From Acutalibacteraceae bacterium (GTDB lineage: Bacteria; Bacillota; Clostridia; Oscillospirales; Acutalibacteraceae), in NCBI GenBank assembly GCA_045539315.1, contig JAZQFC010000037.1, positions 90,534 through 154,533 on the forward strand: a stretch of DNA of 64,000 bases, written 5' to 3'. Positions 10,238 to 35,571 of the stretch are shown piece by piece. Numbering within the stretch: position 1 is the stretch's first letter; each line of letters starts with the position of its first letter. The position numbers and the translations under genes are program-made. Under the pieces are notes generated by a model. That model ran no database searches, had not been told where the DNA came from, and was given only the letters and a program-made list of their open reading frames with translations.

Positions 10238-11467
10238 TTAATCTCTTGAGAACAGGTCTCTTGTATATACTTTTTCTTTTACATCTGAAAGTGAGTCATC
10301 ATTTCTATTTGCAACAATTACGCTACAACGAGATTTAAACTCATCTAAATCTCTTACAACTTCGCTGCCATAAAACTCACTATCTTTCAATGTTGGCTCA
10401 TAAACAAGAACTGTTACGCCCTTGGCATTAACTCGTTTCATAACACCTTGAATCGATGATTGACGGAAGTTGTCAGAGCCAGATTTCATAGTAAGTCTAT
10501 AAATACCAACTATATATTTAGAAGCATTTGCAAAATCAGACACGCCGTTTTCGTTATAGAAGCCGCATTTTCTTAAAATCTGGTCTGCGATAAAATCTTT
10601 ACGAGTGCGGTTAGACTCAACAATTGCGCCGATGATATTATTTGGAACATCTCTAAAGTTTGCAAGCAACTGTTTTGTATCTTTTGGCAAACAATAACCA
10701 CCATAACCAAACGATGGGTTGTTATAATGTGTACCTATTCTAGGGTCTAAACTCACGCCCTCGATAATCTGTTTTGTATCAAGACCACGAACTTCTGCAT
10801 AAGTATCAAGTTCATTAAAAAACGATACTCTAAGCGCTAAATATGTATTCGCAAAAAGTTTTATAGCCTCTGCTTCTGTTGTGTTTGTAATAAGAACATC
10901 TATATCTTGTTTTAAAGCGCCCTCTTTTAAAAGGTCTGCAAATTTTTCGGCAGCAGGCTTTAATTCAGGATAAATTTTTGGCACGCCAACAACTATTCTT
11001 GATGGGTTAAGGTTATCAAAAAGCGCCTTACCTTCACGTAAAAATTCAGGGCTGAAAAGTATATTCTTAATGCCATATTTTTCAATCATATCTTCAACAA
11101 AGCCAACAGGCACTGTTGATTTGATAACCAAAATAGCGCTTTCATTTACTTGCATAACTTTTTTGATAACATATTCAACAGAAGATGTATCAAAATAGTT
11201 TTTTTCAACATCATAGTTAGTTGGAGTTGAAACAATTATATATTCAGCGTCTTTATACGCTTTTTCATCATCAATTGTTGCTGTTAAATTAAGAGTTTTA
11301 GTAGCCAAATACTCTTCAATTTCTTTATCAATAATTGGTGATATTTTATTATTAATCATCTGGACCTTTTCAGGAATGATATCAACTGCCCAAACCTCGT
11401 GATTCTGCGCTAAAAGCACTGCATTTGAAAGGCCTACATATCCTGTTCCTGCAACTGCAATTTTCAT
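10238..11467 (-). CDS. ugd: UDP-glucose 6-dehydrogenase
   Basis: 409 aa with GTGYVGLS Rossmann motif and [12 protein letters not shown] catalytic-Cys motif. ATGA overlap with the upstream VanZ-like gene. Confidence 0.92.
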
Positions 11468-11964
11468 AATTTCTTCTCCTTTGCTTTTTGATGTTTATAG
11501 TATTTGATTGCTAAATATACTAAAACACCTACAACGCCTCCAAACAAATCAAGCCAAATATCTGAAACCAATGACTGTCTGTTTGATATTAACTGAATTG
11601 TTTCATCAACAAGTGCTATTGATAAAACAATATAAATCGAATTTATAAGTCTATATACATTTCTTTTTTTAAACAAATAATACTTGGAAACTATTATGCC
11701 AAATACCATATATTCAACAAAATGGGTGAATTTCCTAATTTTATGTATCAAGAAAACATCAAGCCACTTAATCTTACCATACGGAATAAATAACTGCACA
11801 ACTCTTCTAGGTAAATGAGAAAGCCATTGAGATATTCTACCATTCAGCATTGAATTTATCAAAATAAAACCCAAAACTGCGCCAATAACAATATACTTCT
11901 TTTGTTTAGGCGTTAAATTTTTTAAAAAAAGTTTTATTCTTTCAAAAATTTCTTTAAATTTCAT
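11464..11964 (-). CDS. VanZ-like membrane protein
   Basis: Internal ATG (MKFKEIF...) chosen, giving about 166 aa with 4-5 TM helices and VanZ-like hydrophobic blocks. Overlaps the epimerase stop by 11 nt and the ugd start by 4 nt. Confidence 0.65.
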
Positions 11965-12997
11965 AATATTCTTTATACCACTCGGCGAATTTTCTAAGTC
12001 CATCACGAAGCGATGTTGATGGTTTAAAACCAAAATCGCGTTCTAACGCAGATGTATCTGCGAATGTTACAGGCACATCGCCCGGTTGCATAGGAACTAA
12101 CTCCTTATGCGCCTCAAAATCATAATCTTTTGGCAAAACTTCTGCTCTAATTAACTCTTGTTGCAATATATCAACAAAATCAAGAAGGTTTTCAGGATTA
12201 TTGTTACCGATATTATAAACCTTGTATGGTGGAATTGGCAAACCATCTTCACCGTTTTTCTTTTCAGGCGCTTTGAACATAACACGTTTTACGCCTTCAA
12301 CAATATCATCAACATATGTAAAATCACGTTTGCAGTTACCAAAGTTAAAAATCTTTATAGTTTCGCCTTTAAGTAGTTTGTTTGTAAAGCCGAAATAAGC
12401 CATATCAGGACGACCTGCAGGACCGTAAACTGTAAAAAATCTAAGACCTGTTGATGGAATGTTGTAAAGTTTTGAATAAGCGTGAGCCATCAATTCATTG
12501 CTCTTTTTAGTAGCCGCATAAAGTGATACAGGGTTGTCCACTTTGTCGTCCGTACTATATGGCACCTTTTTATTTGATCCATAAACACTTGAAGACGAAG
12601 CATAAACCAAATGTTCAACCGGGTTATTTCTACACGCTTCTAAAATATTATAAAAACCGATAAGGTTTGATTCAATATAAACATCAGGATTTTCAATAGA
12701 ATATCTTACACCCGCTTGCGCTGCAAGGTTTACAACGATATCAGGCTTATGCTCGGCAAAAATGCTATCAATAAGCTCTTTATCTGCGATACTGCCTCTA
12801 ACAAATTCCCATTTATCTTGAGTTTTACAAGCCAATTCTTCAATTTTTTCAAGACGGTGTTCTTTTAATGAAACATCATAATAATCATTCATATTATCAA
12901 TGCCGATAATATCAAAAGTTTCATCAGAACGAAGCAGTTCAAGCACTAAATTAGCGCCGATAAAACCAGCCGCTCCTGTAACAAATATCTTTTTCAT
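11954..12997 (-). CDS. NAD-dependent UDP-glucuronate 4-epimerase (SDR)
   Basis: 347 aa with GAAGFIGANL and YAATKKSNE (YxxxK). Overall resemblance to the Cap1J/LpsL-type UDP-GlcA epimerases, and it is adjacent to ugd. Confidence 0.8.
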   Translation of the reverse strand: MKKIFVTGAAGFIGANLVLELLRSDETFDIIGIDNMNDYYDVSLKEHRLEKIEELACKTQDKWEFVRGSIADKELIDSIFAEHKPDIVVNLAAQAGVRYSIENPDVYIESNLIGFYNILEACRNNPVEHLVYASSSSVYGSNKKVPYSTDDKVDNPVSLYAATKKSNELMAHAYSKLYNIPSTGLRFFTVYGPAGRPDMAYFGFTNKLLKGETIKIFNFGNCKRDFTYVDDIVEGVKRVMFKAPEKKNGEDGLPIPPYKVYNIGNNNPENLLDFVDILQQELIRAEVLPKDYDFEAHKELVPMQPGDVPVTFADTSALERDFGFKPSTSLRDGLRKFAEWYKEYYEI

Positions 12998-13000
12998 AAA

Positions 13001-13090
13001 CTAATCTCCTAATATATTGTCGCAGATTTTGTCAACCCCATCTACCGAAAGTCTAACTTATATCGGTACTGTAAGGACTTCTAATTTCAT
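13001..13090 (-). pseudogene. Decayed 3-prime remnant of a DegT-family aminotransferase gene
   Basis: Minus-strand translation ..KLEVLTVPI*VRLSVDGVDKICDNILGD* aligns with the C-terminus of the intact DegT (..KKVLTLPMYAGLSTEEVDKICDIILGE*). By hand count, 54 of 78 nt match, including a 19-nt identical run. It has an in-frame stop and no upstream body. Confidence 0.7.
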
Positions 13091-13101
13091 ATTAATAATA
13101 T

Positions 13102-13635
13102 TTAAATATTATTTTTTCTACAATACTCTTTTTTTTCGTCATACGACATCTCTACCGTAAAATGCACATCGTCTTTTACTTTTTCATACCAGCTTTCAAC
13201 ATCGCCAATAATTCTTGCAGGCACTCCTCCTACTATAGAATTATCTGGCACATCTTTTGTAACAACAGCACCTGCACCAACTATGCAATTGTTTCCAATG
13301 GTTACATTTCTCAAAATAATACTATTTGCTCCAATAAAACAATTATTTCCTATTTTAATTCTCCCTAGCAAATCTGCTTTTTTACCATCAAATTTACCAA
13401 GTCCATTTACCACCTTAATGGAGCCATCATGAGTAAAAAACGATACATTTGACGAAATCAAACAATCTTCACCTATTTCAACTAAATACGGTTCTGAACC
13501 TAAACAATCAACACCTGACAATATTGTTACCTTATTTCCAATTATAGCGCCTTTTTTTCTAAGATACTCTACTTTTTTTGAATTATTTGTAGAAATTAGA
13601 ATTTTATAAAATACATTAAAAAGCTTTCTTATCAT
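13102..13635 (-). CDS. Hexapeptide-repeat (left-handed beta-helix) acetyltransferase
   Basis: 177 aa with repeated [LIV]G-x4 hexapeptides ([36 protein letters not shown]). It is flanked by the only two gaps over 100 nt in the locus. Confidence 0.85.
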
Positions 13636-13741
13636 AACTCTCTACCGCCTTCTTAGAATAAATAAGATTTAATCTATCAACTAATTAACTAATAATTTTT
13701 TGAACTTAATGCAATCTTTAACTTCATGCTTGAATTTCTTA

Positions 13742-14824
13742 TTACTCTCCCAAAATAATGTCGCAGATTTTGTCAACTTCTTCTGTTGAAAGACCTGCAT
13801 ACATAGGCAAAGTTAAAACTTTTTTAGAAACATCTAATGCAACCGGAGTTTTAGTTGCATCAAAGTCATAACACTCAAAATCATTTGTAAGTGGATAAAA
13901 ATATTTCCTTGCGATTATATCATTTTCGCGCAAACGAGCATCAACTTCATCACGAGTATATTTATACCCATCAAACACAACAGGGAAATACGCATAGTTT
14001 GGTTTTATGCCATCTTGAACTTTTAAAAGTTTGATACCTTCTACATTTGATAAGCGCTCAACATAAGTTTCATAAACTGCTTTTCTTTTTGCAATTTCTT
14101 CATCAATATGACGAAGATTGCAAATTCCCATAGCAGCGGCAAACTCATTCATTTTTGCATTACCACCAATAGCGGTAACGCGTTCAGCATTTTTAATGCC
14201 GAAGTTTTTAAGATTATTAAGTTTTGCTTTCAAAGTTTCATCTTTATATGTAACCGCGCCGCCTTCAATAGTATTAAACACTTTTGTTGCATGAAAACTG
14301 AACATTGAAGCATCACCTAACGAGCCAACGCCTTGTCCATCAATTTCCACACCAAATGCGTGAGCAGCATCATAAATAACTTTAAGATTATGCTTTTTAG
14401 CAATTCTGTCAATCTCTTTATAATCGCAGATATTACCATAAACATGCACAGGAATAATAGCAGTTGTTTTGTCTGTAATTAAACTCTCAATTTTTGATGG
14501 ATCAATAGTATAATCATCTGGGTTTATATCACAAAAAATAGGTGTTAAACCGTTTCTTACAATTGCGTGAGTAGTAGATGCAAATGTAAACGGAGTAGTA
14601 ATAACTTCACCCGCAAGCCCCATAGCCGCTATAACCATTTCAAGCGCTAAATGACCATTTACAAAAAGAGTTGTGTTATCAACTTTTAAATAATCACACA
14701 ATTCACTCTCTAACTGTCTGTGTTTAACACCATTATTAGTAAGCCATCTAGACTCCCAAATGTCTTTAATTTCTTCGCAATACTCGGCAAAATCCGGCAT
14801 AGAAGAACGAGTTACATTAATCAT
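13742..14824 (-). CDS. DegT/DnrJ/EryC1/StrS family sugar aminotransferase
   Basis: 360 aa from the ATG at 14824 (MINVTRS..), which has an AAAGGA RBS. The track ORF starts at a TTG at 14842 that lacks an RBS. PLP-lysine region SFHATKVFNTIEGG. Confidence 0.87.
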   Translation of the reverse strand: MINVTRSSMPDFAEYCEEIKDIWESRWLTNNGVKHRQLESELCDYLKVDNTTLFVNGHLALEMVIAAMGLAGEVITTPFTFASTTHAIVRNGLTPIFCDINPDDYTIDPSKIESLITDKTTAIIPVHVYGNICDYKEIDRIAKKHNLKVIYDAAHAFGVEIDGQGVGSLGDASMFSFHATKVFNTIEGGAVTYKDETLKAKLNNLKNFGIKNAERVTAIGGNAKMNEFAAAMGICNLRHIDEEIAKRKAVYETYVERLSNVEGIKLLKVQDGIKPNYAYFPVVFDGYKYTRDEVDARLRENDIIARKYFYPLTNDFECYDFDATKTPVALDVSKKVLTLPMYAGLSTEEVDKICDIILGE

Positions 14825-14855
14825 TTTAAAAAATCCTTTCAAAGATAAGGTTTGC

Positions 14856-15764
14856 TTATCTGTTTTGTTTTAAATATTCTTTGTATGGCATATCAGGGTC
14901 AAATCTTGCGCCACTATGCCAATTTCCACGCTCTTCTTGTGGTGGCAAAGTATTATAATCGCCATACATTACAGTTAAAACCCTATCAAACCCTATTGGA
15001 ATTGGAAATTCAAAGCCTTCAAATTTCCACATTAATTTATCACTGAAATCACACTTTTCAAAAATATTATTTTCTAAAGGATACAAAGTGAGTGGCGCTA
15101 CTGTTACTTTATCGGTATCGACATCTTCAAATTGAGAAGACAGTCTTTCCACCTCTTTAAAAATCTCATCAGGAGTCTTGCCTGAATAATTTTTAACCCT
15201 TTTTTTATTCTTCTCATCTAAATTAGGGTTTTTCATTCTCATATAAGTAGAAGAATCAATATTCAATGCGTTTATCTTTTGATAACGCTCTTTAGCGCCT
15301 TCTTCTATAAAATTATCAAGCGGTAAAATATCAATATGAATACCAAAATTCATATCTTGATATTTAAACATTTCATTAACACAAGTTGTATTTGAATTCT
15401 TTAACTTTGCCATTGAAAAACCTGACTCTTTATCAGTAAGTGGTGTTTGCAAAAAATAAGGTTCTTCTATCGTTTTAGCCAAAGACAAAAACTTGTTATA
15501 GTCTTTTCTTGGCATTAAAACATCAATATCATCATCCCAAGGAACAAATCCATGATGTCTAACAGCGCCCAAAAGAGTGCCATGCATTAGAAAATATGTT
15601 AAATTATATTTTTTACAAAGTTCATCAAATTCGAGTAATAAATCCAGTTCAATAGCCCAGATTTTTTTGCGAGTTTCATCAACTAAAAAGCCTTCTTGCA
15701 CTTCGCTTTTTAAAAAATCTTTATTTATTACACCTTTTTCTAAAATTCTTTGATACTCTTTCAT
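14856..15764 (-). CDS. LicD-family phosphotransferase
   Basis: 302 aa with LMHGTLLGAVRHHGFVPWDDDIDVLMPRKDY, typical of LicD (phosphocholine or other phospho-alcohol transfer to glycans). Confidence 0.82.
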   Translation of the reverse strand: MKEYQRILEKGVINKDFLKSEVQEGFLVDETRKKIWAIELDLLLEFDELCKKYNLTYFLMHGTLLGAVRHHGFVPWDDDIDVLMPRKDYNKFLSLAKTIEEPYFLQTPLTDKESGFSMAKLKNSNTTCVNEMFKYQDMNFGIHIDILPLDNFIEEGAKERYQKINALNIDSSTYMRMKNPNLDEKNKKRVKNYSGKTPDEIFKEVERLSSQFEDVDTDKVTVAPLTLYPLENNIFEKCDFSDKLMWKFEGFEFPIPIGFDRVLTVMYGDYNTLPPQEERGNWHSGARFDPDMPYKEYLKQNR

Positions 15765-15765
15765 C

Positions 15766-16206
15766 TTAGTCCTTTAAATCTTTTATCATATAAATGCTTT
15801 TTCTATCAGTATCAGACTCATAAACAAAGCCAATACTCTCATTTAATTTTATTGCAACAGGGTTATCGCAATCAACTTCTAAACGTGCGGTTTTCATACC
15901 GTCTTTTTTCATTTGCTTAAATCCAAAATTATATAACGCTTTGCCAAGACCTTTTCCTTGAAATTCGTGTTTTGTTGCCAAAAGTGTAAAATAGCCACAT
16001 TTTGTTTCAAAATCATTTGAATAAAATACCACAAAAGACGCATTCACACCATCTTCTTTTGCTGCTACTACCCATGAAAAATTTGAAAGTTTTTCTGAAA
16101 AGCCCAACAGGTCACTCTGCTTTTCTTTCAAGTGTGGCAAAAGTGGTAAAAATTCAGTTATTAAATTATAAATATCTTCTGCCTTTGTAATTCTTACAAG
16201 CTCCAT
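15766..16206 (-). CDS. GNAT-family N-acetyltransferase
   Basis: 146 aa. Acetyl-CoA binding motif FQGKGLGKALY. TAATG overlap with the upstream ATP-grasp gene. Confidence 0.8.
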   Translation of the reverse strand: MELVRITKAEDIYNLITEFLPLLPHLKEKQSDLLGFSEKLSNFSWVVAAKEDGVNASFVVFYSNDFETKCGYFTLLATKHEFQGKGLGKALYNFGFKQMKKDGMKTARLEVDCDNPVAIKLNESIGFVYESDTDRKSIYMIKDLKD

Positions 16207-17411
16207 TACTTAACTACTACCTTATAATAATCCTTAATATTATCAACAATTTTAAGCATTTCATCTGTCGTTTCGGCTTTAAAAATAATCGTTCCTAATG
16301 AATGTGTAGTATTTTTATATGCATAAACTTTATCGCCTTTTTTATGAGTACAATACACATCAATTAAATTATTCTTTTTAAAGTCTTCATTAAACCAAAG
16401 TTCTTCAAACTCACCATCGACTTCGCTTAAAATCATATAATTACTATAGCAACCATTTGTTTTTGCCATTTCAAGACCTGAACAATCTTCACCTACTGCA
16501 GCGCGAAGAGTGTACTCTATCATATCAACACCGGTTGCATATTTTATAAGTTGTGGAATATAACTGCCACCATTTCTAGGACCTAATTCCAATATGTAAA
16601 CATCATCATTTTCATCAATGATAACTTCTATATTATAAGCACAAGTTTTCATTCCTAGTGCTGTTATAAGTCTTTGAATCTCGCCATCAACCTTTTGCTT
16701 TTGCTCATCGGTTAAAAATGATGGCCAAAATTCACCTAGCGCCACATAATCACGAGTGCCAATAGAACTCTTGTTATATAACTCATTACCATAACTTGTG
16801 AAAACTAGCTTACCATCAACTGAAAAACCATCACCAGAAACCTGATAACCTTTTTTAACAATAAAACCTTCAATGATAAATCTGCCGTTTCTTGAATACG
16901 AAAGCGCTTCTTTAACTGCTTTTTTAAGCTCAGACTTATCAAAAATTTTGACAACGCCTTTACTACCAGATGAGTCAACTGGCTTTACCATAACAGGAAA
17001 ATGAAATTTATCTATTTCTTGCATTGCTTTTTCATAAGAACTATATCCTCTTGCTCTTGGAGTATGAAATCCGTTTTTAGCTAAAAATTCTCTAAACAAA
17101 TCTTTTTGAGTTAAAATTTTAACCGATTCAAACGGATTGCCAGGTAAATTAAGCTCTTGTGCAACATAAGCCGCTGTTGGTGCGGCAGGGTCAGAAGCAT
17201 AAGCAACAATACCATCTATTTCACATTTTTTTGCAAGTTCTAACACACCATCTAAATCGGTGGTGCTTACATTATAATATTCATCTGCGAACTTATGCCC
17301 TGGATTTTCTTCCAAATAATCACAGGTTATTACGTAATAACCCATATCTTTTGCTTGTTTAATAGCAGGGATTTGTTGCATGGTTCCGCCTAAAAATAAT
17401 AACTTTTTCAC
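16206..17411 (-). CDS. ATP-grasp domain carboxylate-amine ligase
   Basis: 401 aa with KKLLFLGGTMQQIPAIKQAKDMG, FPVMVKPVDSSGSKGV and FIIEGFI. Paralogous to 7834-9138. Confidence 0.82.
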   Translation of the reverse strand: MKKLLFLGGTMQQIPAIKQAKDMGYYVITCDYLEENPGHKFADEYYNVSTTDLDGVLELAKKCEIDGIVAYASDPAAPTAAYVAQELNLPGNPFESVKILTQKDLFREFLAKNGFHTPRARGYSSYEKAMQEIDKFHFPVMVKPVDSSGSKGVVKIFDKSELKKAVKEALSYSRNGRFIIEGFIVKKGYQVSGDGFSVDGKLVFTSYGNELYNKSSIGTRDYVALGEFWPSFLTDEQKQKVDGEIQRLITALGMKTCAYNIEVIIDENDDVYILELGPRNGGSYIPQLIKYATGVDMIEYTLRAAVGEDCSGLEMAKTNGCYSNYMILSEVDGEFEELWFNEDFKKNNLIDVYCTHKKGDKVYAYKNTTHSLGTIIFKAETTDEMLKIVDNIKDYYKVVVK

Positions 17412-17423
17412 TAAAACATTTCC

Positions 17424-18593
17424 TTATTTTTTATTCTTAATATCATTAACAAAACGAGATATTTTTTCAACTGCAAGTTGAAGTTTATCTAACTCTAATG
17501 TAAAAGCAATTCTTACAAAGTCATCATAATTATCGCCATAAGTTACTCCGGGAGCAACAGCGATATGTTGTTCTTTTAATAACTTTTCAGTAAACTCTAT
17601 CGATTTTATTCCGGTCTTTTCTATATTAACAAACAAATAGAATGTTCCTTCAGGGGTTTTACAAGAAAGACCATCAATCAAATTAATTGCTTTAGTTATG
17701 TAATCTCTTCGCTCTTGGAAGGTTTTTAACATTGACTTATCATCAATACATTTTTCATACGCCACAGTACCGGCATATTGTGATGGAAGAGGAGTACAAG
17801 CAGCAATGTTTTCCTGAAGTTTTGTCATAGTATCGATAAGTTGTTCAGGTGCCACCGCATAGCCTACTCTATACCCCGTCATTGAAAAGCGTTTAGAAAG
17901 ACTATCAATCAAAACTGTACGCTCTCGCATACCCTCACGAGTAAAAATACTGCTATGATTTTTGTTATCATAAATAAGATAACTATAAACTTCATCAGAA
18001 ATTACAACCAAATCATTTTGAATAGCAATTTCAGAAATTTCATCCAAAATATCATCGCCAAAAGCAGTACCGGTAGGGTTACAAGGTGAATTTAAAATAA
18101 TCGCAACTGTCTTTTTTGTTATAGCATTTTCAATTTGCTCTTTTGTTGGAATAAAACCGTTTTTCTCATTAGAATTTACTACAACAGGAATACCACCTGC
18201 CATTTTTATCATTTGAATATAATTAACATAATAAGGCGCTAAAACTATTACTTCATCGCCTTCATCAATAAGACTGGCAAGTGAAATATATAGCGCTCCC
18301 ATACCACCTACAGAAACCATTATCTCTGTTTCGGGGTCAACGCATATGTTATACTCATTTTTTATATGTTTTGCTAAAACTTTTCTCAACTCTATAATAC
18401 CTGCATTAGCAGAATAGTGAGTGCTGCCACTCATTATTGCATCACAAGCGGCTTGTCTAATTTCAAGATTTGGCACAACATCGGGGTCGCCAAGTGTTAA
18501 GTCTATAACATCATCATAATTTTTTGCAATGTTAAAAAACTGTCTTGTCAAAGATGTTTCAACTTGACTTGCTTTTTTAGAAATTTTCATCAA
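17424..18593 (-). CDS. Class I/II PLP-dependent aminotransferase (aspartate-aminotransferase fold)
   Basis: 389 aa. SLSKRFSMTGYRVGY (PLP lysine) and NSPCNPTG motifs. Confidence 0.87.
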   Translation of the reverse strand: MMKISKKASQVETSLTRQFFNIAKNYDDVIDLTLGDPDVVPNLEIRQAACDAIMSGSTHYSANAGIIELRKVLAKHIKNEYNICVDPETEIMVSVGGMGALYISLASLIDEGDEVIVLAPYYVNYIQMIKMAGGIPVVVNSNEKNGFIPTKEQIENAITKKTVAIILNSPCNPTGTAFGDDILDEISEIAIQNDLVVISDEVYSYLIYDNKNHSSIFTREGMRERTVLIDSLSKRFSMTGYRVGYAVAPEQLIDTMTKLQENIAACTPLPSQYAGTVAYEKCIDDKSMLKTFQERRDYITKAINLIDGLSCKTPEGTFYLFVNIEKTGIKSIEFTEKLLKEQHIAVAPGVTYGDNYDDFVRIAFTLELDKLQLAVEKISRFVNDIKNKK

Positions 18594-18615
18594 TTCGACC
18601 CCCTTTTTTAATAAT

Positions 18616-20073: not shown

Positions 20074-20082
20074 TTAATAACC

Positions 20083-21300: not shown

Positions 21301-21311
21301 TGCTTCCCTTT

Positions 21312-22541: not shown

Positions 22542-22566
22542 TTTTACCCCTTCGTTTTTATTGCTT

Positions 22567-23469: not shown

Positions 23470-23488
23470 ATCATATTAATATTTCAAA

Positions 23489-28182: not shown

Positions 28183-29256
28183 CTAACCTTCTGTTACTAT
28201 ATCATAAATGTCTGCATATTGTTTTAAAACAACACAGTCAAGATATGTGTCCTTAACTCTTTGCACATTAAAATCAGACATTTTCTGTCTCAAACTTTTA
28301 TCGGTCAACTCATTCAAAGCCGATTTTAATTCATTTGGACTTTGTTGAGAAATAACTTTACCGCCTTCCCCGTAATCAATCATATCAGCATTTGCAGCCC
28401 AATCAGTAACTATACAAGGAAGACCTGCCGCCATTGCTTCTGTAAGTGCGCAAGAAAAACCTTCGCCGAAGTATCTTGATAAAAACACAAAAACATCATT
28501 GCTATCAAGTTGCTCTTTTACATAATCTGCATTTTGAACCCCATGAAGTCTAACGTTTTCAGAAATCTCAAGATTTTTTATTTCATCAGAAATTGCACCA
28601 ACTAAATTAAACTGAATTTCAGGCATCTCTCTAGCAGCAGCGATAATAGTATCACACCCTTTTTCAGGTGTTACACCACCAACAAACACAACTTTGTTGA
28701 TTTGTTCATTTATTTCTTTCTTTTTATCGAAATTAAGTTCAGATTCCATAACGAAGTTTGGTATAATCTGAACTTTTGCTTTTTTATTCAAACTTTTAAC
28801 AAAATCATAAGACTTTTGATTAAGAACAATTATTCCATCGCAAAGGCGAGAAAACCATTTAAACACAAGTCTTTTGTAACCTTTATTAACTACATTCGGC
28901 ATAGTACAGTGACAGTGAAGAATAAACTTCTTGTTATATTTTTTAGCGATTCTTCCTGTTACATATTCTCTTAACATACCAAACACAGTACAAGGAATAT
29001 TAGTATGTACAACAGAGATTTCAGGCTCATTTTTTAAAGCAGCTTTCTCTTGTTTCCAAATAGACATAGAGCGAACATACTCGTCTTTGATATGTCTTTT
29101 TGTATTTTCAAAAGGGTCTCTGCCATTAATTGTGTTTGAATTAATATGCACTATACCCCAGCCACTTGGCAAACCTATTGTCAAAACTCTTTTAGTCCAA
29201 GTTGCAATGCCGCCTGCTGGTGGTGGATAATGCGATATAAGCAAAACTTTTTTCAT
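28183..29256 (-). CDS. Glycosyltransferase family 4 (GT-B)
   Basis: 357 aa with PPAGGIATW at the N-terminus and EGFSCALTEAMAAGLPCIVTD. Confidence 0.88.
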   Translation of the reverse strand: MKKVLLISHYPPPAGGIATWTKRVLTIGLPSGWGIVHINSNTINGRDPFENTKRHIKDEYVRSMSIWKQEKAALKNEPEISVVHTNIPCTVFGMLREYVTGRIAKKYNKKFILHCHCTMPNVVNKGYKRLVFKWFSRLCDGIIVLNQKSYDFVKSLNKKAKVQIIPNFVMESELNFDKKKEINEQINKVVFVGGVTPEKGCDTIIAAAREMPEIQFNLVGAISDEIKNLEISENVRLHGVQNADYVKEQLDSNDVFVFLSRYFGEGFSCALTEAMAAGLPCIVTDWAANADMIDYGEGGKVISQQSPNELKSALNELTDKSLRQKMSDFNVQRVKDTYLDCVVLKQYADIYDIVTEG

Positions 29257-29264
29257 AAACTCTC

Positions 29265-29819
29265 CTAAAATTTAAAAGTTTCAGAAAAACTTCCCCATTT
29301 TTGGTCTTTTTCTGAAATAATAAGTTCTACACCTTCTTCAAGCGGCCATTCTATGCCGATTTCAGCGTCATTCCACATAACGCCACCTTCATCGCCTGGG
29401 CGATAAAAGTCAGTGCATTTATAGCAAAATTCTGCAGTATCAGAAAGCACCAAAAATCCATGCGCAAACCCTGGAGAAATATAAAACTGTTTCATATTTT
29501 CTGCCGACAAAATCTCTCCGTGCCATTTGCCATAAGTTTGGGAATCTTTTCTCAAATCAACTGCAACATCAAAAACTTTACCTTTGATTACTCGTACTAA
29601 TTTTCCCTGTGGATACTCTTTTTGATAATGAAGTCCACGAAGCACGCCTCTTTTTGACATTGACTGGTTATCTTGAACAAAAACCATATTAAGACCTGCA
29701 TCGTTCATATCTTTTTGGTTATATGTTTCAACAAAATAGCCCCTGTTATCGCCATAAACTGTTGGCTCAATAGTATAAAGCCCTTTTATTGAACATTCTT
29801 TAACAGTAATTTTACCCAT
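29265..29819 (-). CDS. rfbC: dTDP-4-dehydrorhamnose 3,5-epimerase
   Basis: 184 aa with GDNRGYFVETY and VLRGLHYQ cupin motifs. TAATG overlap with the upstream SDR gene. Confidence 0.92.
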   Translation of the reverse strand: MGKITVKECSIKGLYTIEPTVYGDNRGYFVETYNQKDMNDAGLNMVFVQDNQSMSKRGVLRGLHYQKEYPQGKLVRVIKGKVFDVAVDLRKDSQTYGKWHGEILSAENMKQFYISPGFAHGFLVLSDTAEFCYKCTDFYRPGDEGGVMWNDAEIGIEWPLEEGVELIISEKDQKWGSFSETFKF

Positions 29820-30652
29820 TATTTACCCTTCGCTTTTAGTATTTTTTCTATTTTTTCGCTATTTCCCCAAACTGCATCTGAATCATACGCTCTGTCAGGA
29901 AAAGCGCCATAAATGAGTTTTATATCATAGTCATTTTCTTTGATAAACTGCTCTACTCTGTCTGCAAGACTTACAGGTTTGCCAGAGCAAATGTTTATAA
30001 TACCGTTCACATCATTTTGCATAACTGCCGCTGACACTTGAGATGCAAATTCTTCATAATTAAGAAAATCGTATTTATTTTTACCGGTTGTAAACGGAAA
30101 TTCTTTTTTACCTTCTTCTACTGCAGAAGTGATTTTTGAAAATATTGAGTTACCAAACTTTGAATTACCAACGATATAGTAACCACGAAGCCATTGAAAA
30201 ACAACATTATTAGTTTTGCACAAAAGTTCTGCTGCAACTCTTAATGCGTTTTTTGCAACGCCGTATAAATTAAGCGGTTTGCAAGGTGTATTCTCATCAA
30301 TGCACCCCTCATAAAAGCCAATTTCATGCATTGAACCTAAAACTGCAACTTGACGTACTCCGCCTTTTATTATATTTTCAATAAACTCATAATGCTTTGG
30401 CAAATCGTTAAGATGGTTAGGCGAATTATGCACAAAACCATCGCGCCAAGCCAAATGCAATAAAACATCAGGACTTTCAAAATACTCAAAAGGATTTTCG
30501 ACATTGAACAAATCAACTGACATCTTTTTTGCTCTTTCATCAACAAAGTCCAAATTAAAATCAACTGCTAAAACTTCGGCACCGTCATCAATTAACTGTT
30601 TTACAATGCCTTGTCCTAAATACCCGTTTGCACCGGTAACAAGAATTTTCAT
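29819..30652 (-). CDS. SDR-family NAD(P)-dependent reductase/epimerase occupying the rfbD position
   Basis: 277 aa from the internal ATG (MKILVTGANGYLG) 7 nt after the rfbB stop. YGVAK (YxxxK). It does not look like canonical RmlD, so it may be a dTDP-4-keto-6-deoxyhexose reductase of different stereochemistry. Confidence 0.65.
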   Translation of the reverse strand: MKILVTGANGYLGQGIVKQLIDDGAEVLAVDFNLDFVDERAKKMSVDLFNVENPFEYFESPDVLLHLAWRDGFVHNSPNHLNDLPKHYEFIENIIKGGVRQVAVLGSMHEIGFYEGCIDENTPCKPLNLYGVAKNALRVAAELLCKTNNVVFQWLRGYYIVGNSKFGNSIFSKITSAVEEGKKEFPFTTGKNKYDFLNYEEFASQVSAAVMQNDVNGIINICSGKPVSLADRVEQFIKENDYDIKLIYGAFPDRAYDSDAVWGNSEKIEKILKAKGK

Positions 30653-30659
30653 ACTTAAA

Positions 30660-31679
30660 TTATCTATCCTTATACATTTTTTCGTAGTAATCTTGGTAGT
30701 CACCTTTAAGAATGTTTTGCCACCATTCTTTGTTATCAAGATACCACTGAATAGTTTTCTTTATACCATCATCAAATTTAGTTTCCGGCAACCAACCCAA
30801 ATCATTATGAATCTTTGTTGGGTCAATTGCATATCTCAAATCATGACCAGGTCTGTCAGTAACATAAGTTATCAAACTTTCCGGTTTATTAAGAGCCTTC
30901 AAAATTGTTTTAACAACTTCTAAATTGCTCTTTTCATTATGACCGCCGATATTATAAATCTCGCCAACCTTACCTTTTCTAATAATAAGGTCGATAGCGC
31001 TACAATGGTCTTCAACATAAAGCCAGTCACGAACATTTTCGCCTTTGCCATAAACCGGCAAACTCTCATCATCAAGCGCACGAGAAATCATAAGCGGAAT
31101 TAACTTTTCAGGGAAGTGATATGGGCCATAGTTATTAGAACAACGAGAAATTGTTACAGGAAGACCATAAGTTCTCTGATAAGCGCCCACCAACAAATCT
31201 GCCGCCGCTTTTGAAGATGAATAAGGCGAAGAAGTATGAATTGGTGTTTCTTCTGTGAAGAACAAATCAGGTCTGTCAAGCGGCAAATCGCCGTAAACTT
31301 CGTCAGTTGAAACCTGATGATAACGTTTAACGCCGTATTTTCTCGAAGCATCCATAAGCACAGATGTGCCTATGATATTTGTTTTCAGGAAAATTTCAGG
31401 GTCTTCAACGCTTCTGTCAACATGGCTTTCAGCGGCGAAGTTAACAACTATATCAAATTTTTCTTCTTGGAACAATTTATAAACCGCTTCTCTATCAGCG
31501 ATATCGCCTTTTACAAAACGGAAATTATCATTTTTCATAGCCTCTTCAAGAGTTTGAAGATTTCCTGCATATGTAAGCGCATCAAGACAAACAATTCTGT
31601 CTTCAGGATGATTTTTAAGTTGGAAGTAAACAAAGTTACTTCCAATAAATCCGGCACCGCCGGTTACTAAAATATTCAT
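30660..31679 (-). CDS. rfbB: dTDP-glucose 4,6-dehydratase
   Basis: 339 aa from the ATG at 31679 (MNILVTGGAGFIGSNF) with a GAGGG RBS. YSSSKAAAD catalytic motif. Confidence 0.93.
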   Translation of the reverse strand: MNILVTGGAGFIGSNFVYFQLKNHPEDRIVCLDALTYAGNLQTLEEAMKNDNFRFVKGDIADREAVYKLFQEEKFDIVVNFAAESHVDRSVEDPEIFLKTNIIGTSVLMDASRKYGVKRYHQVSTDEVYGDLPLDRPDLFFTEETPIHTSSPYSSSKAAADLLVGAYQRTYGLPVTISRCSNNYGPYHFPEKLIPLMISRALDDESLPVYGKGENVRDWLYVEDHCSAIDLIIRKGKVGEIYNIGGHNEKSNLEVVKTILKALNKPESLITYVTDRPGHDLRYAIDPTKIHNDLGWLPETKFDDGIKKTIQWYLDNKEWWQNILKGDYQDYYEKMYKDR

Positions 31680-31694
31680 AAAATACCCTCTCAA

Positions 31695-32576
31695 TTAATA
31701 AAAAAGTTTTCCTTCGGCAACGTTTTTAAGGTGTTGTCCATAAGGACTTTTACCGTAAGCTTTAGCCGATTCAAGCAAATTATCTTTATCTATCCAACCA
31801 TTGTTGTAAGCGATTTCTTCTAAAGATGAAATTACAACGCCACATTGTTGAATTGTTTTAACAAAGTCGCCCGCTTCTACTAAACTATCAACAGTGCCAG
31901 TATCAAGCCATGCAAAACCGCGACCTAAAACTTCTAATTTAAGCGAATTGTCATCAAGATACATTTTGTTCAAATCTGTAATTTCCAACTCGCCACGGTC
32001 TGATGGTTTAACTTTTTTTGCAAAATCTACAACTCTATTGTCATAGAAATAAAGACCGGTTACAGCATAATTTGATTTTGGCTCTTTAGGTTTTTCTTCT
32101 AAAGATAAAACATTCAACTCTTTATCAAACTCTGCAATGCCAAAACGCTCTGGGTCATTAACATAATAGCCAAACAAAGTACACAAACCTTTTTCGCTAT
32201 TTTCTACTGCGTTTTTAAGTAATCTTGTAAAACCATGACCATAGAAAATATTATCGCCTAAACACAAAGCGCAACTATCATCACCAATAAACTCTTCACC
32301 AATGATAAACGCTTGAGCAAGTCCATCAGGAGAGGGTTGAATAGCATATGAAAGTTTTATGCCGTACTGACTACCATCGCCCAAAAGATTTTTAAAATTT
32401 TGACTATCTTCAGGAGTTGTAATAATTAAAATATCACGAATTCCTGCTAACATAAGAGTAGAAATAGGGTAAAAAACCATTGGCTTATCATAAACTGGTA
32501 ACAACTGTTTAGAAGTTACTTTTGTAAGTGGATAAAGTCGAGTACCAGAACCGCCTGCAAGTACAATACCTTTCAT
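31695..32576 (-). CDS. rfbA: Glucose-1-phosphate thymidylyltransferase
   Basis: 293 aa with [18 protein letters not shown] and the typical RmlA C-terminus. Confidence 0.94.
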
Positions 32577-32592
32577 TTTTTAATTCCTCTCT

Positions 32593-33585
32593 TTAAACTT
32601 CAAAAATTTGTTTTAAGAATCCTCTTAAAGAATATTTTTCATAAATTTCTTGGTCTATATCCTGATATGGCTCTTTGAAAAACTCATTTTCAAAATCAAA
32701 CTCGCCATCGTATATGTAAATATTTTTTGGATTGTAAAAATCATAATTCACAAGGTCTTTGTTAGTAGTGATAAGTTTTACCTTTGCGGCTAAACTTTCA
32801 ATAACCCTTATAGTTGCGCCATCTTGATTATCTTGAGGAGAATCAAGCACACACTTTGAACTTTTTACAATCTGCATTGTTTTGGTCTTTGACAAAGTTT
32901 CCTGTTTGAAATCACTCAACTTTGCTTTTTTGTATTCAACGTCTTTTAACTTGTGATAGAAAAATTTAAGTTTTGAAGGCATATAGTGATAAATGAATTG
33001 TTTATCATAAACACCCTTTAATTTTTCTGACATCTCGTTAATAAACTTAAACTTTTTAGGGTGCGCTGTTCCGATATAACAACAGTCATATTCAAACTCA
33101 TCTGTCTTTTGTTTGCCGAGCGCCTCGTAATCTCTGTCATAAAAAAGTGGTAAAAACTCTAATTTTTCGTATTTTAAAGTATCAATTCTGTCAAAAGAAA
33201 AGCATCTGTCAAAATATTGCCAAAACCTTTCAATATCATGAAGATTAATAATTGAATCCCACTGATACGATAAAAATTTCGCGTCGCTTTGAGAGGTCTT
33301 TAATCTTTTCATCATGTCATCATCAAAGCAATAAGACATTCCTCTAACAAAGAAAACATAATCATATTTCACACTTTTTGTAGCCTCGATAATACTTTCA
33401 AAATACGAGCCAACTTTTTTTCTAACAAGTTTCGGATTAACTCTTGAAACCGCTCTAAAAAGGCTGTTTTGAGTTGGTCTGTCAGAAAAAGTATCAACCG
33501 AAAAGCCTAATAATTTTAACTCGTCTTCAATTTTTTTGTAATATCCAAAATATTGAGAGGCGATTAATAATACTTTTTTGCTCAT
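32593..33585 (-). CDS. Uncharacterised polysaccharide-locus protein (tentatively CgeB-like / GT-B-like C-terminus)
   Basis: 330 aa soluble protein with no motif I can assign with confidence. ATGA overlap with the upstream gene. Confidence 0.5.
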   Translation of the reverse strand: MSKKVLLIASQYFGYYKKIEDELKLLGFSVDTFSDRPTQNSLFRAVSRVNPKLVRKKVGSYFESIIEATKSVKYDYVFFVRGMSYCFDDDMMKRLKTSQSDAKFLSYQWDSIINLHDIERFWQYFDRCFSFDRIDTLKYEKLEFLPLFYDRDYEALGKQKTDEFEYDCCYIGTAHPKKFKFINEMSEKLKGVYDKQFIYHYMPSKLKFFYHKLKDVEYKKAKLSDFKQETLSKTKTMQIVKSSKCVLDSPQDNQDGATIRVIESLAAKVKLITTNKDLVNYDFYNPKNIYIYDGEFDFENEFFKEPYQDIDQEIYEKYSLRGFLKQIFEV

Positions 33586-34760
33586 AAACTACCTTCAAAA
33601 ATTTTTAAATCTTTATAAACTTCGTTAACCTCATTTACCGAGTCGATAACTTTTTTATAACTGATACTATCACTATGTTTAAATATCTTTTTGAACAGAT
33701 GCCTTATAGGTAAATATATAAATCCGAAATACTTAAAGAAATTATACTTTTTAGCAAGTGACCATGTTAAAAGCGCTCTGTTTTGAGTAAAGATAAAAAA
33801 TGCCACGACTTTATTTTTCTTGTGAATTCTAACGCTACCATTAGCATAAGTTTCTTCAACCTCACGCTTAACACCAAAGTTTCCTTTTTTTAGCGATAAA
33901 TCGAACAACGCGTCCGCCGTTGTATTTTCAATATTCTGATTCAAAAAATATTTATTAAACAATTTTGTGCAGATAATCGCGAAATTATAAAGACCATATT
34001 TTTTCAAAACATCTACGTTCTCTTTGCTTTCAAAGAAATCGCCGTTATTTAAAACAAAAAATCCCCAGTCTAAAATTTGGCGAAGACCTAAACCATCTTT
34101 TGAAATATGCCTTTCCATATGCAAAAGCAAAGATAATGCTTGATATAACTGGGATAATGATTCGAACTCATTATTACCAAACTTAACATTTTTAACTTGA
34201 TTTAATGCATTATCTAGTTGCTTTTTTAGAGCAACTGCTTTTTCTAAATTTGGAAAATCTGTCATTTCAAAATGAAGTTCAAAAACGACATCCGATTTCT
34301 TTAAAGTGCAATGGAAATGATTATCGCCATTGTTTATCAACTGATAACCGTTTTTAATTAAAAAGCGTTTAACCTTTTGATACTCATTTTTTCTAACCAA
34401 AACATCAACATCTCCTAAAGTTCGAAGGTCTGGTTTTGGATAATCTTTTGCTATAGACAAGCCTTTTAAAATTGCATATTTAATATCATTTTTTTCGAAC
34501 AACTCGCAAAGTTCGCCTTGCGCTTTTACAATTTTGTCATTATTGAACATTACTGCAACTGTGTGACTTTTGAATTTTTTCAAAACTTCTTCAGGAATAT
34601 TTTCAATTCCTGCAGTTGCATCATATGCGAACGGCACAACTGATTGAAAAATTGCTTCTTCTAAAACTTCTTGCCAATCAACATTGTCCGGAATGTTCGC
34701 CTCAAAATTAAAGAGGCTTTTTTTCAACAACCCGATTAGCACTTGCTGCGACTGTGTCAA
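33582..34760 (-). CDS. Uncharacterised nucleotidyltransferase family protein (NTP_transf_5-like)
   Basis: 392 aa. Block ILKGLSIAKDYPKPDLRTLGDVDVLV...FLIKNGY matches that family signature. TTG start with an AAGGAGG RBS. Confidence 0.7.
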   Translation of the reverse strand: MTQSQQVLIGLLKKSLFNFEANIPDNVDWQEVLEEAIFQSVVPFAYDATAGIENIPEEVLKKFKSHTVAVMFNNDKIVKAQGELCELFEKNDIKYAILKGLSIAKDYPKPDLRTLGDVDVLVRKNEYQKVKRFLIKNGYQLINNGDNHFHCTLKKSDVVFELHFEMTDFPNLEKAVALKKQLDNALNQVKNVKFGNNEFESLSQLYQALSLLLHMERHISKDGLGLRQILDWGFFVLNNGDFFESKENVDVLKKYGLYNFAIICTKLFNKYFLNQNIENTTADALFDLSLKKGNFGVKREVEETYANGSVRIHKKNKVVAFFIFTQNRALLTWSLAKKYNFFKYFGFIYLPIRHLFKKIFKHSDSISYKKVIDSVNEVNEVYKDLKIFEGSL

Positions 34761-34793
34761 ACAAAAACCTCCTTTTCTATAATCTTTTAATTT

Positions 34794-35483
34794 TTAGTTA
34801 CCTGTTTTCCTAAACACCGATACAAAGGTCATAAAGAAAATTTTAACATCCAAAACAAAGTTTCTGTTGTCAACATAGTACAATTCCATTTTCTGACGCT
34901 CGCCTGTTGCATAAACCGCATCGTTTCTGGCGTACGCCTGCCAATATCCCGTAAGCCCCGGTTTTACGCTTAATAACTTTTGTGCATCTTCACCGTAGTT
35001 TTCTAACTCTTCTTCAACTATCGGCCTTGGACCTATCAAGGTTAAATCGCCTTTTAAAACATTCAACAACTGCGGTAATTCATCAAGACTTGTTTTTCTC
35101 AAGAACTTGCCTACCTTTGTAATTCTTGGGTCATTCTCAAGTTTGAACTCTGACATAAAAATTTCTAACTCTTGTGGAGTTAACATTTCTTCAAGTTTGT
35201 CCGCATTCATTTTCATACTGCGGAATTTGTATATGTAAAGTTCTTTGCCAAACTGACCAACTCTTTTGTGTTTATAAAAAGCAGTGCCCTTATCGTCAAT
35301 CTTTATTGCAATTGCAATAATCAAAAAGAACGGTGATAAAACAATCAGCCCTAATGATGAACCGATGATATCAACCGCACGCTTAAAAAAGAGATAAAAA
35401 GATGCCTTTTCTCTCTTTTGTTTATTCTCTATATTTTTTGTTACTTTTTCTTCATTGATATTCTTCACTATATTCTTTTCCAC
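34794..35483 (-). CDS. Undecaprenyl-phosphate sugar phosphotransferase (bacterial sugar transferase family, priming enzyme)
   Basis: About 229 aa with one N-terminal TM helix and SLDELPQLLNVLKGDLTLIGPRP. The GTG at 35483 has GAGGG 6 nt upstream. The track start (TTG at 35489) is too close to that RBS. Confidence 0.88.
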   Translation of the reverse strand: MEKNIVKNINEEKVTKNIENKQKREKASFYLFFKRAVDIIGSSLGLIVLSPFFLIIAIAIKIDDKGTAFYKHKRVGQFGKELYIYKFRSMKMNADKLEEMLTPQELEIFMSEFKLENDPRITKVGKFLRKTSLDELPQLLNVLKGDLTLIGPRPIVEEELENYGEDAQKLLSVKPGLTGYWQAYARNDAVYATGERQKMELYYVDNRNFVLDVKIFFMTFVSVFRKTGN

Positions 35484-35542
35484 AATCAACCCTCATTTGT
35501 TGGCTTTGCTAGACACAATTCCACAAATTAAAACTTTAATAT

Positions 35543-35571
35543 ATTATAATATATAATATATAAAAAGTCAA
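35543..35571 (-). promoter_or_regulatory. Consensus sigma-A promoter of the polysaccharide operon
   Basis: On the minus strand: TTGACT (35571-35566), 17-nt AT-rich spacer, TATAAT (35548-35543), about 55 nt upstream of the first gene. Confidence 0.55.

Follow-up and report, generated by a model that had tools for sequence, protein, structure and literature searches.

The 64,000-nt stretch of contig JAZQFC010000037.1 analysed here (the window) carries a block of 25 genes on its minus strand which we consider likely to be a polymorphic surface-polysaccharide locus of an Acutalibacteraceae-like gut bacterium (Oscillospirales, Clostridia). Its chromosomal position, flanked by a GH5 gene and a LysR gene, is fixed, and a single conserved promoter probably drives its transcription. 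Its product is most likely a Wzx/Wzy-dependent heteropolysaccharide containing a 6-deoxyhexose, amidated uronic acids and an N-acylated 4-amino-4,6-dideoxyhexose, a chemistry that we infer from the gene families. An original prediction for this DNA had pictured a glycan of 6-deoxyhexose, uronic acid and amino sugar bearing amide-linked amino acids; the gene families and the precedent of the Campylobacter jejuni enzyme domain Cj1438C both fit that picture, in which the amino-acid substituents are the deduced part. All components fall into enzyme classes already known, and the locus follows a standard logic overall. Unusual are the three ATP-grasp enzymes, predicted to form amides and accompanied by an aminotransferase and an importer, a GT-B family that lacks a sequence model, a constant pair formed by an NTP_transf_5 gene and a phosphoglycosyl transferase (PGT) gene, and a very recent exchange of cassettes.

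Organisation and variation of the locus

The open reading frame (ORF) listing gives exactly 25 consecutive, co-directional and tightly packed ORFs over 10238-35489 on the minus strand. Genes were assigned by Pfam and NCBIfam hidden Markov model (HMM) scans together with PDB sequence matches, and nearly all of the gene calls made earlier were borne out by the HMMs. In the direction of transcription, the features are:

35543-35571, minus: sigma-70-type promoter TTGACT-17-TATAAT (consensus match 11/12)
34794-35489, minus: PGT, small and monotopic (Bac_transf), priming enzyme (PF02397, 214 bits)
33582-34760, minus: NTP_transf_5 protein, Pol-beta-type nucleotidyltransferase fold (PF14907, 143 bits)
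32593-33585, minus: WaaS/CpsH-family glycosyltransferase (GT), 330 aa (NF053598, 246 bits, cutoff 60, full length; no Pfam match)
31695-32576, minus: RmlA, glucose-1-phosphate thymidylyltransferase (TIGR01207, 462 bits, cutoff 361)
30660-31679, minus: RmlB, dTDP-glucose 4,6-dehydratase (TIGR01181, 494 bits, cutoff 365); ATG start with Shine-Dalgarno (SD) sequence at 31679
29819-30652, minus: extended short-chain dehydrogenase/reductase (SDR) protein in the RmlD position (PF01370, 76 bits)
29265-29819, minus: RmlC, dTDP-4-dehydrorhamnose 3,5-epimerase (TIGR01221, 254 bits, cutoff 156)
28183-29256, minus: GT4 glycosyltransferase a (PF00534, 92 bits; PF13692, 77 bits)
27109-28179, minus: GT4 glycosyltransferase b, PglH-like (PF00534, 130 bits; NF050056, 157 bits, under cutoff)
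25791-27107, minus: Wzy_C-domain membrane protein (Wzy), presumed repeat-unit polymerase (PF04932, 83 bits)
24905-25825, minus: TupA-like ATP-grasp ligase 1 (TupA1), presumed uronate-carboxyl amidoligase (PF14305, 219 bits, model positions 1-238 of 241)
23489-24904, minus: APC-family permease, amino acid or ethanolamine type, accessory gene (PF13520/PF00324)
22567-23454, minus: TupA-like ATP-grasp ligase 2 (TupA2) (PF14305, 214 bits, full length)
21312-22541, minus: UnkA, GT-B-fold protein, presumed glycosyltransferase (AlphaFold2 (AF2) model, genomic context)
20083-21300, minus: UnkB, UnkA paralog, 54% identity in alignment, in tandem with UnkA
18616-20073, minus: Wzx flippase, MOP family (PF13440, 296 bits; PF01943, 107 bits)
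17424-18590, minus: class I (Asp/aromatic-type) aminotransferase (PF00155, 201 bits; PDB 1dju/1gd9, 282 bits)
16206-17411, minus: L-amino-acid-ligase-type (LAL-type) ATP-grasp enzyme (CPSase_L_D2, 46 bits, cutoff 19.8; ATP-grasp_4, 44 bits)
15766-16206, minus: GNAT N-acetyltransferase (PF00583, 54 bits)
14856-15764, minus: LicD-family phosphotransferase (PF04991, 154 bits)
13742-14824, minus: DegT/DesI-like sugar 4-aminotransferase (PF01041, 329 bits)
13102-13635, minus: hexapeptide-repeat acetyltransferase, inserted cassette (PF00132)
11954-12997, minus: probable UDP-glucuronate 4-epimerase, extended SDR (PF01370, 190 bits)
11464-11964, minus: VanZ-family membrane protein, start uncertain (PF04892, 50 bits; NF037970, 47 bits)
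10238-11467, minus: Ugd, UDP-glucose 6-dehydrogenase (TIGR03026, 327 bits, cutoff 190)
10203-10234, unstranded: bidirectional intrinsic terminator with a 14-bp stem, common to the convergent LysR gene

The closest named relatives of the window are Acutalibacteraceae metagenome-assembled genomes (MAGs). Five loci have the window's gene order: L001, from an ENA metagenome contig that also carries L021; L006 and L007, from GTDB MAGs; L020 (GCA_052831945.1), from a sister MAG; and L022, a JGI metagenome stretch ending within the first TupA-like gene. The arrangement of the site is kept, with RecJ-RelA-...-beta-lactamase-GH5 followed by PGT-NTP_transf_5-... and LysR at the far end, and at least four or five variants occupy the position between GH5 and LysR, so that the idea of a variable island at this place, put forward earlier, holds in the sister-genome comparison. 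The permease and the hexapeptide acetyltransferase are both absent from L001, L006 and L007. In the slot between the two TupA genes, the window and L020 have the permease, L006 has an alanine dehydrogenase (AlaDH)-family gene, and L001 and L007 have no gene. A further variant, L023, has the order rmlA-rmlC-rmlB followed by a canonical rmlD and lacks the WaaS/CpsH GT. Compared across variants, identity is 41-45% for Wzy, 50-68% for the TupA and Unk proteins and 90-96% for RmlA/B, the epimerase and Ugd, as is usual where a serotype-determining centre lies between conserved arms of sugar-pathway genes.

Two observations were made on the TupA genes at this site. The gene at the position of the APC permease in L006 (1255-2223) encodes a 322-aa protein of the alanine-dehydrogenase/PNT family, the short length of which presumably recalls enzymes of the N5-(carboxyethyl)ornithine-synthase type; if so, it would hint at an opine-type amino-acid substituent. 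In L024, two TupA-like ATP-grasp domains are fused into one protein of 601 aa (18806-20611), flanked by two GT4 genes.

Both ends of the block are marked by transcription signals, in agreement with the earlier description of co-directional genes running from a promoter to a terminator. Five diverged, orthologous GH5-PGT spacers were aligned; outside the promoter boxes they are about 50% identical, but the -35 box is unchanged in all five and the -10 box reads TATAAT in four, L021 having TATACT. The terminator hairpin has a folding energy of -18.1 kcal/mol (z = -5.3 relative to shuffled sequence) and runs into a U-tract; a separate terminator at 35670-35644 serves the GH5 gene upstream. Computed from SD-supported starts, the spacing between the genes is 0-34 nt apart from overlaps and two long gaps. 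The 1- and 4-nt overlaps and short gaps described earlier were recovered, with 1 nt at the SDR/RmlC and ATP-grasp/GNAT junctions and 4 nt at the NTP_transf_5/GT and VanZ/Ugd junctions; a 35-nt overlap between Wzy and TupA1 (25791-25825) had been missed. There, the stop region of Wzy lies over the GTG start of TupA1, with the SD sequence AGGAG upstream, and as the overlap is kept in L001, L020 and L022, it suggests translational coupling of the putative polymerase and ligase. The only long gaps, described as two of about 105 nt around one acetyltransferase gene, measure 106 and 104 nt and flank the hexapeptide acetyltransferase gene.

The window and L020 were compared for nucleotide identity in 500-nt bins, which set off the centre from its flanks, and two further features are defined by these comparisons:

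20600-27107, minus: low-GC exchanged cassette with Wzy, TupA1, APC permease, TupA2, UnkA and the 3' part of UnkB (nucleotide identity to L020, GC)
13002-13036, minus: relic copy of the DegT 3' end (direct repeat of 13743-13777, 31/35 identical)

Identity is about 98-99% over approximately 21.1-27.1 kb, 90-95% over a transition at 20.1-21.1 kb and 71-88% elsewhere, with the exception of one 91% bin within the ATP-grasp gene; because of this difference between centre and flanks, the centre is taken to have been exchanged recently. The high-identity block coincides with an AT-rich stretch. GC over 20600-27107 is 0.305, compared to 0.348 outside the locus, making this the lowest 6.5-kb window of the 64 kb and agreeing with the AT-rich centre at about 20-27 kb that had been noticed by eye; without the permease gene, which has a GC of 0.361, the value is 0.289. 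The acetyltransferase cassette (13.1-13.6 kb) is likewise 99.6% identical to L020, compared to about 85% in its flanks. It is bracketed by the 35-nt direct repeat, the relic lying directly upstream of the epimerase start, and in the cassette-free relatives L001, L006 and L007 the DegT stop is found 6-9 nt from the epimerase start. Both the central block and the acetyltransferase gene are thus mobile cassettes moved by recombination, which accounts for the GC dip and the two anomalous gaps.

The window's flanks encode housekeeping proteins (MurC, RelA, RecJ, FeoB, citrate synthase and others). Just past the locus terminator lies a second LAL-type ATP-grasp gene (7834-9138, minus; LAL_C2, PylC-like_N), divergently paired with the LysR gene (9306-10196, plus) and followed downstream by a DctM-type transporter gene (6440-7801, minus); a promoter matching the consensus at 12/12 positions (9230-9202) precedes the two. 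This ATP-grasp gene may be functionally tied to the glycan locus, since homologs with 25-45% identity are situated within modules of UnkA-family, Wzx, DegT and other genes elsewhere, for example in L036 and L025. At the window's edge, a 519-aa ORF without Pfam or NCBIfam family (115-1674, minus) adjoins an O-acetylhomoserine sulfhydrylase gene and murC.

Enzymes of the locus

The PGT matches the models for the C-terminal domain of WbaP/EPS sugar transferases, under the full-length cutoffs. The NTP_transf_5 gene adjoins it in every variant examined, including L021-L024. An AF2 model of the NTP_transf_5 protein (predicted local distance difference test score, pLDDT, 89.9) is closest in fold to MenT, LnuA and ANT(2''), with a weaker resemblance to FKRP, a LicD-family enzyme, in its catalytic domain; the motif G116-D117-x-D119 is intact and invariant. 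A PDB sequence search found no solved sequence relatives of either the NTP_transf_5 protein or the TupA-like proteins. Distant NTP_transf_5 homologs of about 657 aa (P0292, P0295, P0298 and P0300) are fused to GT32-type domains (PF04488, PF05704, PF12919), a domain arrangement that ties the family to glycan synthesis. Three proteins of the locus had been left unassigned earlier; for UnkA and UnkB this stands in the sense that they match no family, while the third, of 330 aa, is the WaaS/CpsH glycosyltransferase.

As had been stated from the outset, genes for LytR-CpsA-Psr (LCP, CpsA), CpsB and CpsC/D functions were not found in the 64-kb window, nor was a chain-length regulator or surface ligase; larger ORFs were covered by Pfam and those at 60-64 kb by eye from their translations, with a few ORFs of 112-124 aa left out. 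The 5' end of the locus is formed by PGT and NTP_transf_5, not CpsA-D, in the window as well as in L021-L024. The missing LCP/CpsBCD genes, a result that holds for this 64 kb, carry little weight, because all variants of the lineage start with PGT and NTP_transf_5 and because such genes can lie elsewhere in the genome. A diderm host as a trivial cause of the missing LCP gene was dropped, the closest loci being from Acutalibacteraceae MAGs (Clostridia).

RmlA, RmlB and RmlC are all above their model cutoffs, and the SDR protein next to them fails the RmlD models (PF04321, 24 bits, cutoff 27; TIGR01214, 18 bits, cutoff 224) and has weak PDB matches; the locus contains no canonical RmlD. As the SDR gene is kept between rmlB and rmlC in L001, L007, L020, L022 and L024, we presume that it encodes a dTDP-4-keto-6-deoxy-L-hexose 4-reductase replacing RmlD, and with such a non-canonical enzyme the 6-deoxy-L-hexose may be rhamnose or 6-deoxytalose. 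For uronic acids, Ugd scored 588 bits on PRK15057, under the cutoff of 757. The epimerase meets no NCBIfam equivalog cutoff; its PDB matches include 5u4q (386 bits, deposited as a dTDP-glucose dehydratase) and the Bacillus cereus UDP-glucuronic acid (UDP-GlcA) epimerase 6zl6 (150 bits). The best models and structure for the DegT protein belong to DesI, a dTDP-4-keto-6-deoxyglucose 4-aminotransferase (TIGR04427, 309 bits, under cutoff; PDB 2po3, 210 bits).

The two TupA-like ligases cover 238-240 of the 241 PF14305 model positions. The TupA-like domain Cj1438C catalyzes ATP-dependent amidation of the C6 carboxylate of glucuronic acid (GlcA) after glycosyl transfer; UDP-GlcA is not a substrate, and the amine is made by a transaminase (PMC11800397, PMC11800379). 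TupA-like proteins such as WemR have been predicted to add amino acids to O-antigens (PMC13419641). The APC permease scores best on TIGR00909 (176 bits), under cutoff, and its homologs with 59-62% identity are found in modules of UnkA-family, Wzx, DegT and ATP-grasp genes (L030, L032, L033 and L037). For the LAL-type ATP-grasp enzyme, the LAL_C2 domain scores 23 bits, under the cutoff of 29.4, and the nearest solved proteins are PDB 4dim (113 bits), the L-amino-acid ligase 3vot (94 bits) and BacD. Homologs with approximately 40% identity lie directly beside Wzx or DegT in L008, L018, L030-L033 and L037.

The UnkA and UnkB family

UnkA and UnkB are kept as a tandem pair in L001, L006, L007 and L020. 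Neither they nor their relatives match Pfam or NCBIfam; among 14 family members, only chance-level Glyco_trans_4_2 and Glyco_transf_4 matches were obtained at E<=5. An AF2 model of UnkA built on the family alignment (pLDDT 89.9, predicted template modelling score 0.82) shows a GT-B fold of two Rossmann-like domains, and Foldseek matched it to 248 PDB chains at E<=1e-3, with E-values down to 1e-8. The top matches listed are GlgM, a chlorovirus GT, MshA, BshA, PglA and OtsA (GT4, GT20). Membership of WecF/GT56 was rejected as no GT56 sequence match was obtained, leaving a functional analogy only.

The family is large, comprising 1006 clusters at 50% identity in a full profile search (773 at E<=1e-30) with a uniform length of about 400-420 aa, compared to only 14 clusters in a word-indexed search, and its members are unnamed or "hypothetical" in the source databases. 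One protein of 858 aa (P0063; 11-member cluster at 90% identity) fuses an UnkA-family domain (residues 1-407) to a C-terminal domain with weak Glycos_transf_1 / Glyco_transf_4 signals and no PDB sequence match.

The genomic context of the family was studied in 13 GTDB and 34 metagenome loci by tblastn with the window's proteins, giving approximately 28 non-redundant distant loci with usable flanks. A DegT-family gene lies within 10 kb of the UnkA-family gene in 22 of these ~28, a count without a background frequency behind it; in 17 of the 22, the DegT protein is 39-68% identical to that of the window. Wzx homologs (34-55% identity) were found within about 5 kb, mostly adjacent, in 17 of the ~28, RmlA/RmlB often follow, and LAL-type ATP-grasp genes occur in 13. 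The order UnkA-Wzx-DegT-ATP-grasp(41%)-x-ATP-grasp-APC permease recurs in L030, L032, L033 and L037. The linkage of UnkA to Wzx, DegT and RmlAB is thus strong but unquantified. Because N-acylated dTDP-4-amino-4,6-dideoxyhexose is the consistent theme of these distant loci, we infer that UnkA and UnkB are transferases associated with this sugar.

Several of the distant loci contain additional genes. In L018, from a Phascolarctobacterium MAG, the interval from ATP-grasp to DegT (13896-19123) encodes two FabH-like proteins, a ketoreductase, a PglD-like hexapeptide acyltransferase and a metallo-beta-lactamase-fold protein, which we take to be a hydroxyacyl N-acylation kit, apparently for the same amino sugar. 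ORFs of 309-410 aa are kept in the UnkA-Wzx-DegT-ATP-grasp modules of L033 (15574-16503), L008 (13880-16086) and L018 (13896-14879), those in L008 and L018 having no Pfam or NCBIfam match. Beside the UnkA locus of L004, from a biogas reactor, a DDE transposase, a caspase-like peptidase C14 gene and a ThsB/TIR-domain gene (8652-12225) form a probable defence island adjoining the glycan genes.

Proposed function and comparison with known systems

In the mechanism that we regard as likely as a whole, the small PGT would prime undecaprenyl phosphate, and five cytoplasmic GTs (the WaaS/CpsH-type enzyme, the two GT4 enzymes, UnkA and UnkB) would assemble a repeat unit of at most six sugars. Three donor routes are predicted: dTDP-L-rhamnose or dTDP-6-deoxy-L-talose via RmlA/B/C and the non-canonical SDR reductase, UDP-GlcA and UDP-galacturonic acid (UDP-GalA) via Ugd and the epimerase, and dTDP-4-amino-4,6-dideoxyhexose via RmlA/B and the DesI-like DegT enzyme. 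N-acylation of the 4-amino sugar would take one of two routes. Either the GNAT or the hexapeptide enzyme would add an acetyl group, or the LAL-type ATP-grasp enzyme would add an amino acid, most likely by coupling the carboxylate of that amino acid to the 4-amino group of the sugar. The amino acid would come from the class I aminotransferase, the GNAT enzyme might cap it or acetylate the sugar directly, and UnkA and UnkB would transfer the 4-amino sugar in a WecF-like role. Similar to Cj1438C, the two TupA-like ligases may act on the lipid-linked unit after glycosyl transfer and amidate one or two of its uronic acids at the C6 carboxyl, using amino acids or amines imported by the APC permease; the slot between the TupA genes would hold functions for substituent supply (an importer here, an AlaDH-family enzyme in L006). 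LicD would attach a phospho-linked group, Wzx would flip the unit and the Wzy_C protein would polymerise it, with attachment and chain-length functions presumably encoded elsewhere. The AT-rich centre would constitute the serotype-determining cassette, moving between genomes by recombination.

Some observations weigh against parts of this mechanism. PF04932 (Wzy_C) also covers WaaL-/PglL-type ligases and O-oligosaccharyltransferases. UDP-GlcNAc 2-epimerases are also among the Foldseek matches of UnkA, the GT-B fold not being exclusive to GTs, and the DegT count around UnkA-family genes is subject to the limit given above. The second-best model for the permease is the ethanolamine permease TIGR00908 (149 bits), also under cutoff. 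Finally, sigma-70-like sites with 11/12 consensus positions lie inside the locus at 12241-12212 and 33770-33741. Together with the two ~105-nt gaps around the acetyltransferase cassette, these internal sites could mean that the 25 genes are split into several transcripts by the cassette and/or internal promoters. This is rather unlikely: the gaps contain no terminator or structured RNA, folding no better than shuffles (z = 0.15 and 1.27), promoter-like sites are no commoner than in shuffled sequence (80 vs 66 +/- 9 and 70 vs 59 +/- 8), internal terminator-like matches are near chance density with no convincing minus-strand terminator inside the locus, and in three cassette-free relatives 6-9 nt separate the DegT stop from the start that follows. 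Because the internal gaps are unstructured and the promoter and terminator matches near chance, a single transcription unit appears to be the simplest reading of the packing and signals.

The ambiguity of PF04932, matched at 83 bits, bears on a different role for the locus, namely O-glycosylation of proteins (S-layer, flagellin or general), in which the Wzy_C protein would be a PglL/WsaB-type O-oligosaccharyltransferase transferring one flipped oligosaccharide to proteins. Such a role would account for the lack of LCP/CpsBCD genes in the window, and it is in line with a score of only 18.8 bits on the polymerase model TIGR04370 (cutoff 40) and with the O-glycosylation flippase NF058658 as best NCBIfam model for Wzx. 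That flippase match (251 bits) is, however, far under the cutoff of 720, no target protein gene is adjacent, and the Wzy_C gene lies in the exchanged variable block, its product being 41-45% identical to the L001/L007 orthologs compared to 76-95% for neighbouring genes. As strong divergence between variants fits a linkage-specific polymerase rather than a transferase of relaxed specificity, the polymerase role is favoured and O-glycosylation is quite improbable. A reading in which the aminotransferase, LAL-type ATP-grasp enzyme, GNAT and permease form a hitch-hiking small-molecule pathway, making an N-acetyl dipeptide or amino-acid conjugate and decorating no glycan, draws on the free dipeptides made by the nearest solved ATP-grasp relatives (3vot, BacD), on the ordinary Asp/aromatic type of the aminotransferase and on the other LAL-type ATP-grasp and transporter genes just outside the locus (6440-9138). 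We consider it highly improbable because the genes are tightly embedded between wzx and licD/degT, with 1-25 nt spacing, an arrangement kept in five of five syntenic loci, and because ATP-grasp homologs repeatedly neighbour Wzx or DegT in taxa that are unrelated (Lachnospiraceae, Phascolarctobacterium, several metagenomes).

Compared to known systems, the surface-polysaccharide locus proposed here is closest in parts to several, and no near-identical characterised cluster was found; a search of the accessible literature likewise yielded no paper on the locus and nothing relevant on ATP-grasp enzymes with 4-amino-4,6-dideoxyglucose (Qui4N), on PF14907 or on an Acutalibacteraceae capsule. The C. 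jejuni HS:2 capsule locus also combines a TupA-like ATP-grasp enzyme (the C-terminal amidoligase of Cj1438) with a UDP-glucose dehydrogenase (Cj1441) and a pyridoxal-phosphate-dependent transaminase (Cj1437). The ligases of the window are instead free-standing, about 300 aa long and duplicated, while that of C. jejuni is fused to a GT2; assembly is of the Wzx/Wzy type here and via an ABC transporter on a poly-Kdo anchor there, and the window has an Asp/aromatic class I transaminase and a permease and lacks the HAD phosphatase. Loci for the amino-acid-amidated O-antigens of Proteus and Providencia are likewise of the Wzx/Wzy type and encode WemR-type TupA-like proteins that are free-standing and predicted to attach amino acids to uronic acids (PMC13419641). 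These are lipopolysaccharide O-antigens of diderm Proteobacteria and the WemR activity is a prediction, whereas the window is from Clostridia and has two TupA-like ligases plus a third ATP-grasp enzyme of the LAL type, with its own aminotransferase and permease.

The 4-acetamido-4,6-dideoxygalactose (Fuc4NAc) module of the enterobacterial common antigen (ECA) consists of RffH/RffG, WecE, WecD, WzxE and WecF, and similarly comprises RmlA/B-type enzymes, a DegT-family 4-aminotransferase, a GNAT, Wzx and a dedicated transferase beside the flippase. In contrast to the ECA transferase, UnkA/UnkB have no Pfam GT match including GT56 and are duplicated, and the module here and in relatives includes ATP-grasp ligases and sometimes a permease. 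The Bacillus halodurans teichuronopeptide, a Gram-positive wall polymer of uronic acid and amino acid, gave the ATP-grasp family its name through TupA; the gene organisation is otherwise not alike, and the comparison concerns the Pfam domain only, the enzymology of TupA not being established. Firmicute cps/eps loci (CpsA-D, CpsE and Wzx/Wzy) resemble the window in their single, unidirectional block of genes for a priming transferase, GTs, Wzx, Wzy and nucleotide-sugar enzymes with a variable low-GC centre, but CpsA (LCP), CpsB, CpsC and CpsD are absent here and the conserved 5' end is PGT and NTP_transf_5. By analogy, the logic of the locus would combine that of the C. jejuni amidated capsule, the Proteus/Providencia O-antigens and an ECA-like amino-sugar module, in a Firmicute-cps-like layout minus CpsA-D.

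A more far-reaching proposal, which we regard as decidedly unlikely, is that the product is a glycopeptide-like, possibly zwitterionic polysaccharide carrying three amino-acid groups, each joined by an amide and installed independently of the others: two would sit on uronic acids, the third on the 4-amino-4,6-dideoxyhexose. The core of the locus would be a hitherto unrecognised, widespread portable module consisting of the unmodelled GT-B family, a cognate Wzx, a DesI-like aminotransferase, LAL-type ATP-grasp enzyme(s) and a dedicated amino-acid importer, making and installing N-aminoacyl amino sugars in the surface glycans of gut Clostridia, Negativicutes and Bacteroidales, with NTP_transf_5 as a core component replacing CpsA-D-type functions in this lineage.

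The surface glycans of abundant uncultured gut Clostridia are almost unstudied, yet they shape phage susceptibility and host immune recognition. The locus described here gives a gene-to-structure hypothesis for amino-acid-decorated polysaccharides beyond Proteobacteria and Campylobacter, points out a presumed GT family, about 1000 clusters in size and clear in its genomic signature, for which Pfam and NCBIfam have no model, and documents a very recent exchange of a serotype cassette between related gut genomes. Current understanding is not overturned by these results; rather, known chemistry and locus dynamics are extended to a new lineage.

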